A DNA stretch of 64,000 nucleotides from Naegleria gruberi (GCA_000004985.1 GG738884.1); one strand, 5' to 3'. Positions 56,958 to 64,000 are shown, numbered from the stretch's first letter. The notes: a model not told the origin generated them from the sequence alone. Program-made: numbers and translations.

Positions 56958-59859
56958 TTAATTCAATATTAGAATAATATTAGAATGAAAATATCGAATC
57001 GAAAACTTACAGTGATCGTGAATTCCTCTTGTGGCTAAAATACTATTAATGATTGTTAGGAGCATCTTGAAACTCTTTCTAAATTCAGTTTCCATCTCTT
57101 CAAGCTCTGGGATAAAAATATCTTCTCTTTGAGTTTCTTTAAAATTGGCCAATTTGGTTCTCAAAGTTATACACATTTGCACAACTTTGAAAATGTGATT
57201 CTTTACGAATAGAGCTTTCTTTAACAGGAATCTGTCCTTAATCTTATTGAGATAGTCCAAGTGGAAGCTGCGAAGATCATCCATATTTTTTGCTGATAAA
57301 ATATTTTCACACAATTCATTCCACAGAGTATGTAATATTCTATTCATCATGTAGTACTGTACAGTTCCAATAAAATGTTTCAATTGGTTAAGGAGAGAAT
57401 AAAACTTGAGATAGGCATTACTTTTGTGTGTAAATGCATCAGTCTTGAGACTCATCTTGTCCAATACTAGTGTTTAAAGTTGTATTGTCAATTTAAAATA
57501 TTAAAAACGAACCTTGTTTAGCTTGTTTTAGTTTGAGATTGAAAACTAAAACCTCATTATAGCTCTGTATGTGTTGAGCTGAAATAATCAGATTTAAAGG
57601 CCACTCTAATTCATAATTAAAAGTGACTGCATCAAAAAAGTTATTTTCCTCATGCTTGATACTTCCATCATCAAAGTGAACCGAAATTATTTCATCCAAT
57701 TTCAGAGAAGTGAAAATATCAGTAGTGTAGACAGAGGTTGAGTTTTCGGTAGCAAAAGAATACCTCCTTGGAAATTCCATTCCTAAACGAAGTGCATCTT
57801 TGAGAATAACCTGAAGATCAAATGTTGTAATTCCTCTAAAATCAAATTGGAAAAATCTATCAGATAAATTAAATAATTTGGTGGCAAAATAGTCCATAAT
57901 GTCACCAGCCTCCATCAAGTAGAATGCTCTTATTGCTGTCAGATGGTCCAGTAACTTGCATCTATTGACCAATAAATCACAAAGATAGGGAGATACTCTA
58001 TGATATTGCTCCTCTATGTGGCTTGATAGTCCAACGTTAAATATTATTTCCAATGGTAGAGTTTGTAATTTTTGACTATTCTCTGATGAAAATTCAAGTA
58101 CATCCATGAGACTCTTCTTCTTGAAAATTGAGGTTAGCTTGTCTTGATTTGTTATTTTGTGCTCCTTAGAAAAGTCAAAGAACAAGAGTTCTTGTTGATT
58201 GGTGCTATTGTCAGCTGGAAGTGCATTACTGTACAAGTCTTCCTTTTCTAAAAGTGATATCATTCGTTTTTTCTTTGGTGGTGATCTCAGAGAGTGTAAA
58301 GATCCAATGGGAGCAAGTGTGGTTTGTCTGATGTTGTTTGAAGAAGAGCCTGCAGATTGATTTTCTCTCTTCTTTGAGGATGATGGCGAGGACCTAAAGG
58401 AATTGAGAGGTTTCAGTGGAGAAATGATTATTGACTCGTCATCATCAAAGGGTGAGTGATGTTCATCATTCTCTAAACCCATCGAAGAAGAAAGTAGATT
58501 AAAGAGTGAGGGTTTCTCCTTTTCTAGTAGATAATCACCAATAGAACTGTTATTGGCAGCAATTTCATACTTTTGCTCAATATCCCGCACAATAATGATG
58601 GATTTACCTGTTGCACTAATCTTGTCCTTAATTTTTGAGAGCAGGGAACAGACCTTAGATTCAGTAAATCCCTCACTCCAGAAGAGAGGTGTTCCAATAT
58701 CCACCAACTCATTCCTCTTGAGAAGAAATTCATTGTGTTGGTCCTGCAAGGTCCCTTCGAATATCCAGCTGTCTGTAATGGAAAGGTATGGCTTTAGAAT
58801 AGCCATCAATATTTGCAATGAATAATCATACTCATCATTGTTGCTCTCCATGGAAATATATTGTCTCGTGAGAACTTTTTCATAAAAGTGAGAAATTAAA
58901 TCTGACATTAAATTACTCTGTGAATCCTCTCTATCTAAGATTTCCTCAATTTCTTCATCCAGTTTTCTGAGTGTATGAATTTTTTGTTCAAAAACAAAAA
59001 GATTTGTCCTAAGGGAGAGGAGAGAAAGATTGTGTGTATCTCCAAATCTCTTTCCCATTTGATTACTCTTCTCCATTTCCGATAAATCGTCTCTGATTTT
59101 CTCTATTATTTGTAATATTGATGAGTAGCAAGATTGAATAATTGTGCTTTTTACAAGGCGTATCGATCTTGTTGCAGTCGAATGCATTTTCCTCAGCTTG
59201 TTACCTATCTTAATAAAATAATTTAAGGAATTATGTAGAGCTGTCCTAGAGAGGAAAGAAACAGAAAGCTCCCTATCAGAAAGCTCAAAATTATCATTCA
59301 CAATTTTAAATATAGTTCCCTGAAATCCTCTCAACATGTTGAATATTTCGCGTATCAGATCATTTTGTCTAATAACTTTTGTACAAGGTGTAATTACCCT
59401 AATATTTCCAATAGGAGGAGTTTGTGTAATTTTAAAGAGAGTATAATGCTCAAATAAATGTCCATGAGGAAAGTGAGTAAATGGTAAATGGCAAGTGATG
59501 AGTTTGTTTGGATCAAAATTGATAGTATAGAATAAATCTTCCGATTTTTCATTGGTTGTATTGAAATCATCATTCATAAAATCATCGTCGTCATCAAACA
59601 TTCCATGATCATCATTGTGTAATATTTGATGACGATCTTCCATTCTATTATTACTACTAAAGATATCTGTAATATTACACATCGTATCCATATGAAACAC
59701 TACATTATCATCAAGAATATCATTATTATTGGTGGTTTTGGTTTTTCTTGCTTGTTTCGAATCCAATTCCTCATCATCGGACCAATCACTTAAATCATCA
59801 TCATCCGAGCCATACTCTGCAAAATTTCGTTTATATTCCTCCAAATCTAATAAATTCAT
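56958..59859 (-). CDS. Gamma-tubulin complex component (GCP/Spc97-Spc98 family). Two exons: 57513..59859 and 56958..57466.
   Basis: LLDHLTAIRAFYLMEAGDIMDYFATKLFN and the C-terminal FHLDYLNKIKDRFLLKKALFVKNHIFKVVQMCITLRTKL fit GCP grip motifs. ORFs 57493..59916 and 56958..57464 are joined by a 46-nt GTTCGT...CACTAG intron. The real ATG is at 59859. Confidence 0.5.
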
Positions 59860-60227
59860 ATGAATTACTGCTTCCGATTCCAAGTAGAGTGCACACCCAA
59901 CAGTTACGTTGTTCAATTATTTTTTTTGTTGAATTATTTAATAATTTTGGCGGGAAGAGAAAGTAATCTTTTATACACAATATATTACCAATCATTACAA
60001 ACTGCAAGTATTAATTATTAAGCATACACCATTTGAATTGATTTAACAACTTCGTATGACACTTCCTTATATAGTAACCCATAAAAACTAATTAGCTCGT
60101 ACGCACAAATTGACCGCAGGATATCCAAAACAACTCATATACCTCCTGTATAAAAACCACACAACTATCCCCAATTCAAGAGTTCAATAACAAAAAAACA
60201 ATTCAATCTTCAAACTAAATCATAAAC

Positions 60228-60965
60228 ATGATCAAGACAGTTCTTATTACTGGTGCTACTACTGGAATTGGTAAGGCAACTGCTGTTGCATTTGCAAAGA
60301 AGGGGTTCAATCTGGTTGTAACTGGAAGAAAGATTGAAAAGGAGCAAGAATTGGTTGAGCAAGTTAAGAAAGCAGGTGCTAATGATGTTTCTTTCTTTCA
60401 ACTCGATGTCGCTCAAGAAACTGCTTTCGAACAAGTTGTTAAGAAAGTTGTGGAAAAGTATGGAAAGTTGGACGTGCTTGTTAATAATGCAGGCATCTCC
60501 ATTAGCATTGATTTGTTGGCCGACTCCAAAACTGAAGATTTCAAGCAAATGATTGATACAAATGTTTTGGGAGTTTACTATGGAATGAAATATGCCATTC
60601 AAGCCATGTTGCAAACTGAAACCAAAGGAGCAATAGTCAATCTTGCCTCCATTGCAGGACACAATGGTTTGCTCTATACTTCACAATACTGTGCCACTAA
60701 ACATGCAGTGGTTGGATTGACAAAGGGAGCTGCAACTGATTATGCCACTAAGGGAATTGCACCAGGAGCAATTAAGACTGAAATTTTACAAAATGCAATT
60801 GATTGTGGTGCCTATTCTGAGGAGGGCATTGCTGCCATGCATCCAATGAATAGAATGGGAACAGTTGAGGATATTGCTAATGGAATTGTCTTTTTGGCAA
60901 GTGATGACTGTTTGTTCATGACTGGAACTACCTTATTCGTTGATGGAGGATACAATTGCAAATAA
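60228..60965 (+). CDS. Short-chain dehydrogenase/reductase (classical SDR, FabG-like), intronless.
   Basis: TGATTGIGKATAVAFAKKGFNLVVTGR (TGxxxGxG), NNAG, S...YCATKHAV (YxxxK), and C-terminal FMTGTTLFVDGGY. Confidence 0.75.
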   Translation: MIKTVLITGATTGIGKATAVAFAKKGFNLVVTGRKIEKEQELVEQVKKAGANDVSFFQLDVAQETAFEQVVKKVVEKYGKLDVLVNNAGISISIDLLADSKTEDFKQMIDTNVLGVYYGMKYAIQAMLQTETKGAIVNLASIAGHNGLLYTSQYCATKHAVVGLTKGAATDYATKGIAPGAIKTEILQNAIDCGAYSEEGIAAMHPMNRMGTVEDIANGIVFLASDDCLFMTGTTLFVDGGYNCK

Positions 60966-61118
60966 TACTTGTTTGATTAATGAGATTTCAATAAACAATG
61001 TTTTTAAGTTGCGAAATCATGGAAAGGTTCTTTCATTAATACCATTTGAACAAACTTTTAACACAAGTTTACAATCATAATAGTTTAAGCAAGCCACAGG
61101 TTGCATTGAAATAGTAGT

Positions 61119-61754
61119 TTACTTTTTACAAATGAAATATTCGAAATTTGTTCCCTTCACTTTTCCTCTTTCAGTAATTTGAAATTTTGATTTTCCAATT
61201 TCCTTATCAGTTTCTCTAACCATCGATGCACCAACCAATGGATAAGTAATCAATGTGACCATTGACAGGAAAACATCAGTCCAGAAATTATAAGTCTTGA
61301 AATGTTCCACAAAGAAAGCAGTTCCACCAGTTTTCAATACTCTATATGCCTCATCAAAGGTCTTTTTCTGATCATCCACACTACACAACACATCAATACT
61401 CAATACAGTGTCAAAAGTCTCATTCTGAAATGGCAAACTCTCACAAGGTGCTTCCATCAATTCAAATTTACTCAAATTATCTTTCATTTCTGTTCTGACC
61501 TTTTCTCTTGCCTTATTGAGCATTCCACTCGATAAATCAATCATGGTAATACTCTCAATCCTATCCATCGGATAGTATTCAATATTGGGACCAGTGCCAA
61601 CGGCAAGGTCCAATACCTTACCCTCAACCATCGGGACAAATCTTGTTCTGCATTTTGAGAGTGTGTTCTTTTCAAGGTACTGCATGATCCAATCATAGAT
61701 CGGAGCAAGAAGATCAAATTTTTGAATGCCAAACCATCCGAGTGGTGAAATCAT
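61119..61754 (-). CDS. Class I SAM-dependent methyltransferase (Methyltransf_11/UbiE-like), intronless.
   Basis: Motif I VLDLAVGTGPN, motif post-I ITMIDLSSGML, motif II FDTVLSIDVLCSV. The preferred ATG is at 61754 (MISPLGW; A-rich context). The track ORF extends to 61844. Confidence 0.6.
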   Translation of the reverse strand: MISPLGWFGIQKFDLLAPIYDWIMQYLEKNTLSKCRTRFVPMVEGKVLDLAVGTGPNIEYYPMDRIESITMIDLSSGMLNKAREKVRTEMKDNLSKFELMEAPCESLPFQNETFDTVLSIDVLCSVDDQKKTFDEAYRVLKTGGTAFFVEHFKTYNFWTDVFLSMVTLITYPLVGASMVRETDKEIGKSKFQITERGKVKGTNFEYFICKK

Positions 61755-61928
61755 TTTTTTTAATGTTGTTTTTCTGGTGTGATTCTTTTTTGGACAAATT
61801 TGGAAGATTGACATAAAGAGGCGAATTGCCACTCTGTCAACCATGTTTTACCCACTATATTTATTTTAATAGTATTTGTGTAAATTGATTATTGAACTGG
61901 TACAGGCAAAGGATGATTTTAAAAGTTA

Positions 61929-64000
61929 TTATTCAGAAACGTTTATTACAAAAGTGTCACTAATGTCTGCTTCTTCGACATACTTGCTGTCAAGATATTC
62001 ACCATTGGCGTACAATGTACCCATATTGTCGTAATTCTTAGCAAAGATATTACCATCATTGCCAGTTGGAAGAATGAGTTTGTCTCTGTGGAGAGCATTG
62101 TTGAAAGTGAGAATTTGGCGATAGACTGGTCCTTCGTTGGTTTGATAATTTTCGTCCACATTATTCAAAAGAACTGTTTCAGTACCTCCCTCAGTTTTGA
62201 GAATAATTTCTGAAAGACAGCCAATAATTGGCGTATCCTTGCCTGCAATGTGATAGATTGGAGTTGCATGAATAGTTCCCCATGTTGGGATTTCACCATA
62301 TTGATTATAGAAAGTATCGACCATCAAGACAAACTTGGCAATGGCATAATCAGTACAGGTGGAATATCCTTGATTGATACATGCCTGATCATTGTTTCTC
62401 AGCATGGCATCCTTGTAATAGTACCATAAGGCAAGTCTATAGTTAGCAGCTTCGGCTCCTTCCATTTCCTTAGAAGCAAGTGTACCGAAATATCTCAAAA
62501 ATCCTTCAAATAAAGAAGCTTCCTTTGAAGTCTTCTTCATATAACCATCCCAATTAATCAAACTGGTCAACAAGTCAGAGTATTTAGAACCCTTCTTGGC
62601 CATTCCACTTGTCATGTTAACAAACATGAATTTGTAATCTCTATAAACCACGCTGAAAGTATCCAATTGAATATTAATCATATCTTGCATGGTCAATTTA
62701 CTTCCAGTCTCTGCATTTTGCTTCATTAATACTGCAAAAAGTTCTTGAATTCTTTGCTGTCTGTAATCGAAAAAGTAATCAGCACTGACTGTGTATGGAT
62801 ATCCTGGAGGAACAACACGATTATTAGCAGATGAAACATATCCTCTCTTTGGATTGTAAACTTCTGGTGCCTTGTCCACAGGTACATATCCATCATAATC
62901 CCATGTCATTGTATCTCCTCTAACAGCATATCGTCCAGTATGGCCCTCCCTACGCATTGGAATTCTTCCAGAAAGCTTGTAACCAATATTACCATTTACA
63001 TCCATGAAGGCATAGTTGAATACAATAGACTTAATTCCATTCACATAGGTACGGAACTCATTCCAATTCTTACTCAAAATCAATGCGTAGTAATTATTTA
63101 CGCTAGTGTCATTTTCAACTTGAGCAATCCATCTGAGAGCTGGAAGTTCTGTCTTGCTCTCGGATAACACTGGACCAAAGATTGACTCTCTGACCTTGAT
63201 GGTGACTGGATCAGCTCCAGAAATTTTGATTGTTTCACTATAAATAGTGAATGGTTTGGAGACTCCATCGACGAGATAATTATTCTCATTTGATGGATCT
63301 GGTGTCAAAATGTAGAGATCCTGAACATCAGTATATCCCAATGTTACACCCCAACCAATATATTCATTTCTTCCAATACCAATACCAGGAACTCCACTAA
63401 AAGCAGCTCCAGAGAAATTCCTAGGAGCTGAAGAGTCACTAGAAGTTCTATAATTCATTTGAACAAGATAAAATTGATCAGGAGCTTGGAATTCCAAGTG
63501 AGGATCATTGGCCAAATATCCTGTAGGACTATCAGTGAATGCCTTATTGACAGCCCAATTATTAGAGCCAATGGCCTTCTTGGTATTTCTTACCATTTCC
63601 TTGACAGTTTTAGAAATGAAGGAATATCTTCCACTGGAACTTTTACCCAATTTTCTACTTCCAGATTTTGGAATATAGGCACCTGTATTATTTCTGTTTT
63701 GCTTCCACTCCATAGCGAGTTCTTCTTGATGGGTCAAGTTGAGTCCTAAATCCTCACGAGTCACAATGGTGGCTGCATCAAACGGAACTGGTGGATCAAG
63801 GACCTCCATTCTGCTCAATGTAACTCCATACTTTGTCATTGCATTGTATCTTCTTTCTTCATCCAAATAATTCACAGACATGATAAACTCGATATACTTT
63901 ACAACACAGAGAGAATCAAAAATGGACCAAGGTTCAATATCATATCCCAATAGAATGGCTTCTGCAGGAGCTGCATTTCCACTTTGTAAATAAGCATTAA
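61929..64000 (-). CDS. Penicillin amidase / acyl-homoserine-lactone acylase family Ntn-hydrolase, partial. The 5' end lies beyond the window edge. No introns are seen in 2 kb.
   Basis: The frame is open to position 64000, and the track start MGYD is a TTG artefact. The beta-subunit N-terminal nucleophile region is GSNNWAVNKAFTDSPTGYLANDPHLEFQAPDQFYLVQMNY (SNxWA...ANDPHL). The length and the LDTFSVVYRDY region fit PF01804. Confidence 0.65.
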   Translation of the reverse strand, partial: NAYLQSGNAAPAEAILLGYDIEPWSIFDSLCVVKYIEFIMSVNYLDEERRYNAMTKYGVTLSRMEVLDPPVPFDAATIVTREDLGLNLTHQEELAMEWKQNRNNTGAYIPKSGSRKLGKSSSGRYSFISKTVKEMVRNTKKAIGSNNWAVNKAFTDSPTGYLANDPHLEFQAPDQFYLVQMNYRTSSDSSAPRNFSGAAFSGVPGIGIGRNEYIGWGVTLGYTDVQDLYILTPDPSNENNYLVDGVSKPFTIYSETIKISGADPVTIKVRESIFGPVLSESKTELPALRWIAQVENDTSVNNYYALILSKNWNEFRTYVNGIKSIVFNYAFMDVNGNIGYKLSGRIPMRREGHTGRYAVRGDTMTWDYDGYVPVDKAPEVYNPKRGYVSSANNRVVPPGYPYTVSADYFFDYRQQRIQELFAVLMKQNAETGSKLTMQDMINIQLDTFSVVYRDYKFMFVNMTSGMAKKGSKYSDLLTSLINWDGYMKKTSKEASLFEGFLRYFGTLASKEMEGAEAANYRLALWYYYKDAMLRNNDQACINQGYSTCTDYAIAKFVLMVDTFYNQYGEIPTWGTIHATPIYHIAGKDTPIIGCLSEIILKTEGGTETVLLNNVDENYQTNEGPVYRQILTFNNALHRDKLILPTGNDGNIFAKNYDNMGTLYANGEYLDSKYVEEADISDTFVINVSE

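Follow-up and report, generated by a model that had tools for sequence, protein, structure and literature searches.

Gene Content of the Locus

The stretch of DNA analysed here (the window) comprises 64,000 nt of Naegleria gruberi sequence (GCA_000004985.1, GG738884.1), and the block shown, from 60,228 to 64,000, holds an SDR gene, a methyltransferase gene and the larger part of an acylase gene (Table 1). ORF calls and Pfam matches place the three genes where the initial annotation had put them and in the families it had named, and all are annotated N. gruberi genes. The SDR and methyltransferase genes are convergent, with a stop-to-stop gap of 153 nt, and the acylase and methyltransferase genes lie in tandem on the same strand, separated by 84 nt, or by 174 nt if counted to the annotated methyltransferase start, an ATG at 61754 that gives a product of 211 aa, shorter than the ORF. 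The acylase gene is truncated by the edge of the window, which falls inside a 363-kb scaffold and not at a contig end, where a chimeric join had been the worry.

Table 1. Features of the three-gene block, in window coordinates.
Feature	Position	Strand	Description
SDR, NAEGRDRAFT_70478	60228–60965	+	245-aa ORF; Pfam adh_short_C2 1.9e-56
Deletion junction in SDR	60756–60761 (between 60758 and 60759)	+	15 nt missing, in frame
Methyltransferase, NAEGRDRAFT_70479	61119–61844	-	241-aa ORF; Pfam Methyltransf_11 6e-21
Acylase, NAEGRDRAFT_70480	61929–64000 (window end)	-	PF01804 2.7e-119
GSNNWAV motif of acylase	63569–63549	-	predicted autoproteolytic site

Within the window each gene is an uninterrupted ORF colinear with its homologues, which confirms the lack of introns noted for this part of the block. 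At least some of the micro-introns attributed to its neighbours also exist: the adjoining gamma-tubulin-complex (GCP) gene has a 46-nt GT-AG intron at 57512–57467, read manually, and GTAAGT-type introns of 44–48 nt can link several further ORF pairs. The latter come from a noisy ORF-pair heuristic that joins nearly any pair and does not discriminate, so that only canonical GTAAGT/GTATGT introns of 44–48 nt and the manually read one were kept. Intronlessness is weak evidence for transfer, since most N. gruberi genes are reported to lack introns (2010 genome paper) and since the acylase gene of a Naegleria-like relative contains a 39-nt intron (GTATGT...TTTTAG). The codon usage of the block is host-like, as had been proposed, with CAI values of 0.78 (SDR), 0.70 (methyltransferase) and 0.73 (acylase) against 0.72 ± 0.03 for the 23 other ORFs of the window, the range of host ORFs being 0.66–0.78. 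No Rfam families were found between 56000 and 64000.

A literature search found no paper naming NAEGRDRAFT_70478–70480 or their accessions, and the Naegleria pangenome supplements yielded none of the three loci. Descriptions of the SDR deletion and of the three-helix acylase anchor discussed below were likewise not found, the HGT list of the 2010 genome paper being outside the scope of the search.

A Mainly Eukaryotic Methyltransferase

The methyltransferase is a class I SAM-dependent enzyme (PF08241) with the GxGxG SAM motif in the segment LDLAVGTGPN, where G83 and G85 are invariant in the alignment. Its best NCBIfam and PDB matches are UbiE/MenG and bacterial PmtA-type enzymes, with which it has the Methyltransf_11 fold and the GxGxG motif in common. 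Identity as a UbiE/MenG quinone C-methyltransferase was rejected because the scores fall far under the cut-offs (70.2 vs 158.35 bits for TIGR01934 and 69 vs 216 for PRK00216), and the PmtA-type score is 52 against a cut-off of 390. The conserved C-terminal segment presumably resembles that of METTL7-type enzymes, and homologues carry an N-terminal hydrophobic anchor.

N. lovaniensis and Willaertia have orthologues at 63% and 52%, and the enzyme falls in a clade with 100% bootstrap support in which Naegleria, Willaertia, Trimastix and Salpingoeca sequences are joined by one from a eukaryotic metagenome contig and by a single protein of Thermotogota (48% identity). The bacterial ancestry first ascribed to this gene is thus unsupported, the clade being mostly eukaryotic. 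The best explanation is vertical inheritance at least since the Naegleria/Willaertia ancestor, within a patchy and mainly eukaryotic family; given the Thermotogota sequence, a bacterial origin is possible. The trees in this study are NJ trees built from distances between sequences picked by similarity, and for this reason the roots of the methyltransferase and acylase clades are not firmly resolved.

A Membrane-Anchored Acylase and Its Ancestry

The window encodes residues 278–966 of a 966-aa protein (P0001), the 3′ 72% of the gene, with which it is 100% identical and colinear; residues 1–277 lie beyond the window and were read from the database protein alone. The window part matches profile positions 116–671 of 675 in PF01804, and the whole protein aligns from the alpha-domain onward. 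TM helices are placed at residues 40–58, 79–97 and 126–144 of the full protein, where bacterial relatives have one, and the two added helices, together with about 130 extra N-terminal residues and a C-x-K-C-x-x-A-E motif, are confined to the eukaryotic clade. The spacer is also longer than in bacterial relatives. The nucleophile motif GSNNWAV is present as claimed, and the predicted autoproteolytic site falls between G421 and S422, where the protein should cleave itself into alpha and beta chains, with S422 (codon 63566–63564) as the N-terminal nucleophile of the beta-subunit. His-beta23 corresponds to H444, in ANDPH, and S422, N423 and A440–H444 do not vary when bacterial homologues are aligned with the protein; N669 (beta248), part of SANNR, shows conservation of at least 90% and is a candidate for the oxyanion-hole Asn (around beta241–248), the putative counterpart of the catalytic Asn of PGA or cephalosporin acylase.

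The same Pfam family includes the penicillin K acylase of Thermus thermophilus (TthPAC) and further, uncharacterised Thermus, cyanobacterial and Chloroflexi proteins labelled as penicillin acylase family, and these share with the Naegleria acylase an N-terminal hydrophobic anchor, an alpha-spacer-beta precursor and the SNNW nucleophile, differing from it in the N-terminal extension and its two helices. The N-terminus of TthPAC anchors the enzyme to the outer face of the membrane, and penicillin K is its preferred substrate (PMC3461476). The three helices would similarly place the Naegleria acylase in a membrane with its catalytic domain lumenal or outside, like the periplasmic face in Thermus. 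The best solved structure is the D-succinylase of Cupriavidus (7EA4, E 2.7e-46), in which SNNW, Ser-beta1 and NDPH align, and penicillin G acylases such as 1GK9 match at E of about 1e-25 to 1e-37; both are soluble periplasmic enzymes at about 30% identity or less, whereas the Naegleria protein is membrane-anchored, and there is no indication that they share its substrate. The AHL acylases PvdQ and QuiP belong to the same Ntn-hydrolase superfamily and Pfam family, but they resemble the Naegleria protein only weakly and over part of its length (PDB E about 1e-10), and identity as a PvdQ equivalog was rejected on a score of 50.8 bits against the NF051460 cut-off of 950, in a match covering residues 414–604. 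Cleavage of acyl-homoserine lactones, one of the functions initially suggested, is not favoured given this weak similarity and the inactivity of the Thermus relative on C4- and C8-homoserine lactones (PMC3461476); as functions of a cassette, both this and the other suggestion, a beta-lactam role, were rejected as unsupported. By analogy with its relatives, the enzyme would hydrolyse an N-acyl amide, probably one with an aliphatic acyl chain.

Other Naegleria sequences and two further ones, of which one is on a eukaryotic contig, form a clade with the acylase at 100% bootstrap; the contig encoding the acylase P0005 carries SCAR, eEF1A-type and guanylate-cyclase genes. Penicillin amidases have been reported in N. 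fowleri, Acanthamoeba, diplonemids and Willaertia (PMC6892926; PMC7285305; bioRxiv 10.64898/2026.01.29.702485). The closest named bacterial acylases, from Thermus, cyanobacteria and Chloroflexi, are 30–32% identical over 97–98% of the query. Midpoint rooting places the eukaryotic clade at the base of all sampled sequences, which leaves no bacterial sister group to be named. The bacterial origin that had been proposed is plausible but would be old, since the relatives are this distant and the eukaryotic sequences form a separate clade with a membrane domain of their own.

An SDR of Bacterial Origin

The SDR is a 100% match to N. gruberi XP_002674394.1 and scores 1.9e-56 against PF13561 (191.7 bits, cut-off 27) and 4e-50 against PF00106. 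Its TGxxxGxG cofactor motif is present (T8–G15, TGATTGIG), and the catalytic tetrad N112/S141/Y154/K158 is kept at invariant or near-invariant alignment columns. The best solved structure is ElxO, an NADPH-dependent SDR of Staphylococcus epidermidis (epilancin 15X; PDB 4QEC/4QED), which is of nearly the same length (about 248 aa), is alike in cofactor motif and tetrad, and aligns over residues 2–242 at E 2.5e-72 (4QEC), the next solved structure reaching 1e-45. ElxO is a lanthipeptide N-terminal pyruvyl reductase, whereas the Naegleria SDR lies outside any lanthipeptide cluster: no lanthipeptide genes were found near it in the window or beside the Algoriphagus homologue, whose neighbours are a sigma-54 activator, a ferritin and other SDRs.

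Transfers from bacteria to Naegleria have been described in the Naegleria genome literature (PMC9928731), and the bacterial ancestry that the initial annotation proposed for the SDR is strongly supported. The best 120 matches are 57–70% identical, the named ones being bacterial, with Algoriphagus and similar sequences at 68–70%, and in the NJ tree the protein is sister to a nine-member group that includes Algoriphagus, within a bacterial clade of 36 members. No orthologue from another Naegleria was found among these 120 matches (identity of about 57% or more, from a database that includes other Naegleria proteomes), and the 90% identity cluster of the SDR has one member only. Among the sampled sequences, Bacteroidota such as Algoriphagus and Flavobacterium come closest, but the donor phylum is not firmly resolved, given distance trees, similarity-picked matches and metagenomic neighbours that mostly lack a name. 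The family is present in genomes of Algoriphagus, Prevotella and Selenomonadaceae; a scan of genome contigs with the SDR is pattern-biased and yields mostly rumen Prevotella and Selenomonadaceae at 62–63%, not the closest, Algoriphagus-type relatives, and as such it points to a bacterial family without singling out a donor.

Loss of a Core Strand

The 15 nt missing from the SDR gene encode five residues, R-[IV]-N-A-[VI], that form beta-strand F ahead of the PG motif. Within an alignment of 120 sequences these residues are absent solely from the N. gruberi protein and present in all 119 homologues; ElxO likewise has the strand, as KINAV. In Algoriphagus DNA the corresponding 15 nt are bordered by an ATT...ATT microhomology. 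AlphaFold (AF2) models were built from the same sequence set with either the N. gruberi or the Algoriphagus protein as target. The N. gruberi model has a mean pLDDT of 71.8, falling below 50 across 142–183 and 232–245, with no strand at the deletion site and an incomplete central parallel beta-sheet, against a mean of 90.7 for the Algoriphagus control, in which helix 150–173 and strand 175–182 stand at 94–98. Most likely, then, the deletion cripples the SDR, which would probably no longer fold or work as a dehydrogenase; the low pLDDT is a hint of misfolding, short of proof.

An intact ORF, a high CAI and the kept tetrad and cofactor motif (TGxxxGIG) would also fit an enzyme that is still in use. 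On such a reading the SDR works in remodelled or neofunctionalised form, or an error in sequencing has produced the 15-nt gap, and the ordinary root-to-tip length (0.202 vs 0.188 ± 0.029), the highest CAI of the three genes and the finding that only seven mostly conservative changes at conserved sites lie outside the deletion speak in its favour. We nevertheless consider it unlikely: the Rossmann sheet has lost a core strand that all 119 relatives keep, the drop in AF2 confidence is limited to the C-terminal third and does not occur in the matched control, and the protein departs from consensus at 10 of the 112 conserved columns, where the mean is 2.4, tying with the worst of the 119 homologues.

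Three Histories, One Neighbourhood

The explanation that we regard as probable is that three genes, each with a history independent of the others, have come to lie side by side by chance in a compact genome, that of N. gruberi. The SDR would have been taken up from a bacterium in the N. gruberi lineage and then integrated and domesticated, acquiring host codon usage and AT-rich flanks, before losing the 15 nt that encode beta-strand F, so that an imported gene may now be in decay. The methyltransferase would have been inherited vertically at least since the Naegleria/Willaertia ancestor, and the acylase, with a bacterial ancestry long ago, would now be a eukaryotic gene, found as well in other Naegleria and in one or more further eukaryotes.

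A functional tie between two of the genes can be envisioned, in which the acylase and methyltransferase arrived separately and later became neighbours through a common substrate. The pair is in tandem on one strand with a spacer of 84–174 nt and could be co-regulated in N. gruberi, and homologues of both carry N-terminal hydrophobic anchors. But short intergenic spacers are normal throughout the window, and none of the relatives examined has the two genes side by side, which makes such secondary clustering improbable; no pathway is known to join the two families.

The initial annotation saw in the block a horizontally acquired cassette, possibly co-functional in, for example, acyl cleavage plus modification, a view encouraged by the three genes lying within 3.8 kb of each other, by their intronlessness in N. 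gruberi and by families common in bacteria. It is already contradicted, and we give it very little credence. The nearest relatives differ, and no donor lineage common to the three is seen: those of the SDR are of Bacteroidota type at 68–70%, the methyltransferase clade is mostly eukaryotic, and the acylase is only 30–32% identical to proteins of Thermus, cyanobacteria and Chloroflexi. Taxonomic depth differs as well, with the SDR seen in N. gruberi only (among its best 120 matches), the methyltransferase and acylase across Naegleria, the methyltransferase also in Willaertia, and a penicillin amidase reported there too (PMC6892926). Finally, the genes do not neighbour one another in N. lovaniensis, Willaertia, the Naegleria-like metagenome organism, the P0005 eukaryote, Algoriphagus or Thermotogota, and linkage of the trio was not found in any of the bacterial and related eukaryotic loci examined. 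Three separate histories are not those of one transferred bacterial cassette.

Equally remote is the explanation of the SDR as bacterial contamination or a chimeric assembly join, which would fit its bacterial identity, its lack of eukaryotic relatives among the best 120 matches, its solitary 90% cluster and a GC content of 39.6%, some 2 sd above the window ORF mean; yet the gene is interior to the scaffold, between the intron-bearing gamma-tubulin-complex gene and Naegleria-wide genes, with host-type AT-rich spacers at its sides (28–29% GC, in intergenic flanks of 25–29%), GC3 within 1 sd of the host and a CAI of 0.78 where the Algoriphagus gene has 0.615, and neither bacterial neighbour genes nor flanking repeats other than short, chance-level ones, nor any mobile-element signature, were found around it. 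Nested among bacteria in the NJ tree, linked to host genes and host-like in composition, the SDR has the marks of a horizontally transferred gene.

Implications

More tentatively, and as a joint reading that we hold to be doubtful, the acylase may represent an undescribed eukaryotic family of multi-pass, three-TM Ntn-hydrolases, derived long ago from a bacterial single-anchor acylase of the penicillin K type and present, besides Naegleria, in one or probably two protist lineages at least. It might act in the phagosome or lysosome lumen or at the cell surface, stripping the acyl chains of bacterial N-acyl compounds, and the SDR beside it might be a rare snapshot of a domesticated import just after a disabling in-frame deletion. 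The eukaryote-specific three-helix anchor on an enzyme of the penicillin-acylase family leads to a testable idea of where amoebae use the enzyme against bacterial products.

The locus is ordinary overall, the exception being the damaged, imported SDR. It carries a caution, in that intronless genes of bacterial look lying together in a protist are no evidence of a transferred cassette: here the history of each gene is its own, and only one species has them as neighbours. The SDR offers a clean, species-restricted transfer from a bacterium to Naegleria, and the deletion of its core strand makes it a case for the fate of imported genes, whether decay or reuse.

Gene Content, Composition and Introns

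The initial annotation had described the window edge as an intronless run of three bacterial-type enzymes with host-like codon usage, and that description is borne out. All three open reading frames are present, with the Pfam families SDR, methyltransferase and penicillin amidase, and each has a 100% identical database entry titled "predicted protein [Naegleria gruberi]", the contig as a whole being 363,092 bp in length. The SDR and methyltransferase are uninterrupted ORFs, and residues 278–966 of the 966-residue acylase, which lie inside the window, are identical to and colinear with the database protein, so that this part contains no intron.

Genes of the three-enzyme block at the window edge
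Gene	Window position	Strand	Product	Locus tag / accession	Pfam match
SDR	60228–60965	+	245 aa	NAEGRDRAFT_70478 / XP_002674394.1	adh_short_C2, 1.9e-56
Methyltransferase	61119–61844	−	ORF of 241 aa	NAEGRDRAFT_70479 / XP_002674470.1	Methyltransf_11, 6e-21
Acylase	stop at 61929 to window edge	−		NAEGRDRAFT_70480 / XP_002674471.1	Penicil_amidase, 2.7e-119

GC content is about 34% throughout the window, composition does not change abruptly at the block, and the spacers around its genes are at 25–29%. Codon adaptation, referenced to the 23 other long ORFs of the window (host mean 0.72 ± 0.03), is host-like for all three genes (SDR 0.78, methyltransferase 0.70, acylase 0.73).

The upstream neighbour, a gamma-tubulin complex component gene, has a 46-nt GT-AG intron (GTTCGT...CACTAG; window 57467–57512, minus strand) connecting ORFs 56958–57464 and 57493–59916, and several other ORF pairs of the window can be joined via canonical 44–48-nt introns by an ORF-pair heuristic that is noisy. 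The acylase orthologue (~62% identical) on the Naegleria-like metagenome contig L066 (ENA metagenome ERZ27315067) is called as two ORFs divided by a 39-nt GTATGT...TTTTAG intron (L066:1595–1633), directly after ...QAPDQ; the N. gruberi gene has none at the corresponding position (window ~63470), so the gene family as such is not intronless. The N. gruberi methyltransferase is likewise intronless, unlike its N. lovaniensis orthologue (L002:9974–10765; PYSW02000001.1), which is matched by tblastn in several pieces and has a gene model of 730 nt that encodes only 200 aa, and is thus interrupted by one or more introns.

Three Genes with Three Histories

When each protein is set against its nearest relatives, the bacterial descent proposed for the whole block is strongly supported for the SDR, whose named relatives are bacterial, and plausible for the acylase, which forms its own 100%-bootstrap clade, but is not demonstrable for the methyltransferase, whose clade is mostly eukaryotic.

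The SDR is a clear, comparatively young bacterial import. Its best non-self matches are 248-aa proteins with 57–68% BLASTP identity (up to 70% in a MAFFT alignment); among the best 120, all named relatives are bacterial (Algoriphagus, Flavobacterium, Bacteroidales, Synergistaceae), and no Naegleria or Willaertia protein appears, in a database that includes those proteomes. Orthologues between Naegleria species were ~61–63% identical in this analysis. In a neighbour-joining (NJ) tree, the N. gruberi protein falls within a 36-member clade, where its sister group has nine members, the Algoriphagus sequence among them, and the best solved structure is ElxO (4QEC; E 2.5e-72, next match 1e-45), the SDR of epilancin 15X biosynthesis. 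Contamination is an unlikely source of the gene, given its host-type flanks, its interior position with Naegleria genes on both sides and its host codon usage (0.78, versus 0.615 for the Algoriphagus gene).

In a scan of genome contigs, the SDR family also turned up in isolates of Prevotella and, from the rumen, in numerous MAGs of Prevotellaceae and Selenomonadaceae. Homologues at bacterial loci L005–L042 (rumen Prevotellaceae, Muribaculaceae and Selenomonadaceae MAGs, Prevotella sp. ne3005 and P. lacticifex) have near-identical match statistics (62–63% to the query) across different families and phyla, often on 2–5-kb contigs, which suggests that the ElxO-like SDR has also been transferred between bacteria, or that it lies on a hard-to-assemble or mobile segment.

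The acylase is probably the product of an old descent from a bacterial family and is by now fully eukaryotised. It matches N. fowleri and the Naegleria-like metagenome organism at 61–62%, the more distant relatives P0004 and P0005 at 34% and 32%, and bacterial proteins (Thermus/Thermaceae, cyanobacteria, Chloroflexi) at 28–32%. The contig encoding P0005 (36.8 kb) is eukaryotic, since it also carries SCAR, eEF1A-type, Armc9 and guanylate-cyclase genes. These four relatives and the N. gruberi protein form the 100%-bootstrap clade, which midpoint rooting puts at the base of the sampled sequences, leaving no bacterial sister to name. Penicillin amidase has already been reported in Willaertia (PMC6892926, PMC7285305) and in "several protists" (bioRxiv 10.64898/2026.01.29.702485).

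The methyltransferase is an ordinary gene of the lineage. A word-indexed search returned orthologues in N. lovaniensis (63%) and Willaertia magna (52%), with the next match at ~37%; an exhaustive representative search gave five proteins with values below 1e-30, beyond which the matches continue without a break. Named near relatives are from a Thermotogota MAG (48%), Trimastix marina (37%), Salpingoeca kvevrii (35%) and Fusobacteriaceae (34%), and the metagenomic homologue P0261 (47%) is eukaryotic, as its flanking sideroflexin and mitochondrial-carrier genes indicate. By NJ, the heterolobosean sequences, P0261, Trimastix, Salpingoeca, some unnamed sequences and one Thermotogota protein group at 100% bootstrap, with weak internal support. 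From these relatives and this clade, the gene dates back at least to the common ancestor of Naegleria and Willaertia and is not demonstrably bacterial. It falls below every NCBIfam equivalog cut-off, and its best solved matches are PmtA/PMT-type enzymes (~1e-9 to 1e-10).

The Thermotogota protein, P0260 (L063:5001–5609; GCA_035396365.1), is genuinely bacterial, as it lies amid two-component and ABC-transporter genes; it is 48% identical to the Naegleria enzyme and sits within an otherwise mostly eukaryotic clade, a placement that may reflect inter-domain transfer in either direction.

The annotated methyltransferase product is 211 aa, starting at the second Met (61754), and the ORF has 30 further codons 5′ of this start (61754–61844, minus strand). 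Homologues from Willaertia, Trimastix, Salpingoeca and contig L065 have a hydrophobic, anchor-like N-terminus; the N. gruberi protein may start upstream of the annotated Met and may carry a membrane anchor.

Adjacency of the Three Genes

The proposal that the three genes arrived as one cassette does not survive these comparisons. Within 10 kb on either side of the methyltransferase in N. lovaniensis and Willaertia, tblastn with the ORFs of window 40–64 kb recovered the methyltransferase alone. In the Naegleria-like metagenome organism, acetyl-CoA hydrolase genes follow the acylase, and the methyltransferase is on a separate contig after an unrelated 485-aa gene. No pairing of block genes was found at the P0005, Algoriphagus or Thermotogota loci; the Algoriphagus SDR has ordinary bacterial surroundings, with neither methyltransferase nor acylase nearby. 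Since these loci show no linkage and the phylogenetic patterns are three distinct ones, the adjacency is best explained as chance in a gene-dense genome. The initial annotation was thus correct as observation and only in part as interpretation. Lateral transfer is well documented in Naegleria (PMC9928731), so the block findings are unsurprising for this organism.

The Acylase Anchor and the Damaged SDR

Three members of the acylase clade have complete N-termini (the N. gruberi protein P0001, P0004 and P0005); in these, 186–214 residues precede the alpha domain, where the bacterial median is 53, and three transmembrane (TM) helices are predicted, against one in bacterial relatives. A C-x-K-C-x-x-A-E motif is conserved between TM1 and TM2, TM3 aligns with the bacterial signal-anchor, and the TM2–TM3 loop is variable and positively charged, which points to an N-in topology that would place the catalytic domain in the lumen or outside. 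The P0005 gene (L001:8660–11911; Logan SRR29240419 contig 845) belongs to a gene-dense eukaryote of 36% GC and encodes 1083 aa with the same three-TM N-terminal domain.

The alignment shows no variation at Ser-beta1 (S422), at N423 or in the ANDPH motif, which contains His-beta23. Among solved structures, the acylase matches D-succinylase 7EA4 (2.7e-46) and penicillin G acylases best; the AHL acylase PvdQ is remote (~1e-10; NCBIfam 50.8 versus 950 bits). The Thermus enzyme, a relative that has been characterised, uses its N-terminus as an anchor on the outer side of the membrane, prefers penicillin K, has its optimum near pH 4, and showed no activity on C4- and C8-homoserine lactones (PMC3461476).

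The N. gruberi SDR reads ...ATKGI-APGAIKT... where 119 of 119 homologues have GI-R[IV]NA[VI]-APG, an unexpected in-frame deletion of 15 nt at 60758/60759. In Algoriphagus DNA, ATT...ATT flanks the missing stretch, compatible with loss by slippage. AlphaFold2 with a 120-sequence alignment gave a mean pLDDT of 71.8 for N. gruberi, with residues 1–140 confident and values below 50 at 142–183 (the Tyr/Lys helix and the missing strand) and 232–245; with the same sequences, the Algoriphagus homologue reached a mean of 90.7, its helix (150–173) and strand (175–182) scoring 94–98. Both the catalytic tetrad and the cofactor motif survive. Counting the deletion, the protein departs from consensus in 10 of the 112 highly conserved columns (mean 2.4, maximum 10 among the 119 homologues). 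That the protein has been remodelled and still functions, or that an assembly error lies behind the 15-nt gap, seems improbable to us; we read the SDR as an imported, domesticated gene that was recently disabled. Only two features of the locus deserve remark: the damage to this SDR and the acylase's three-TM anchor.
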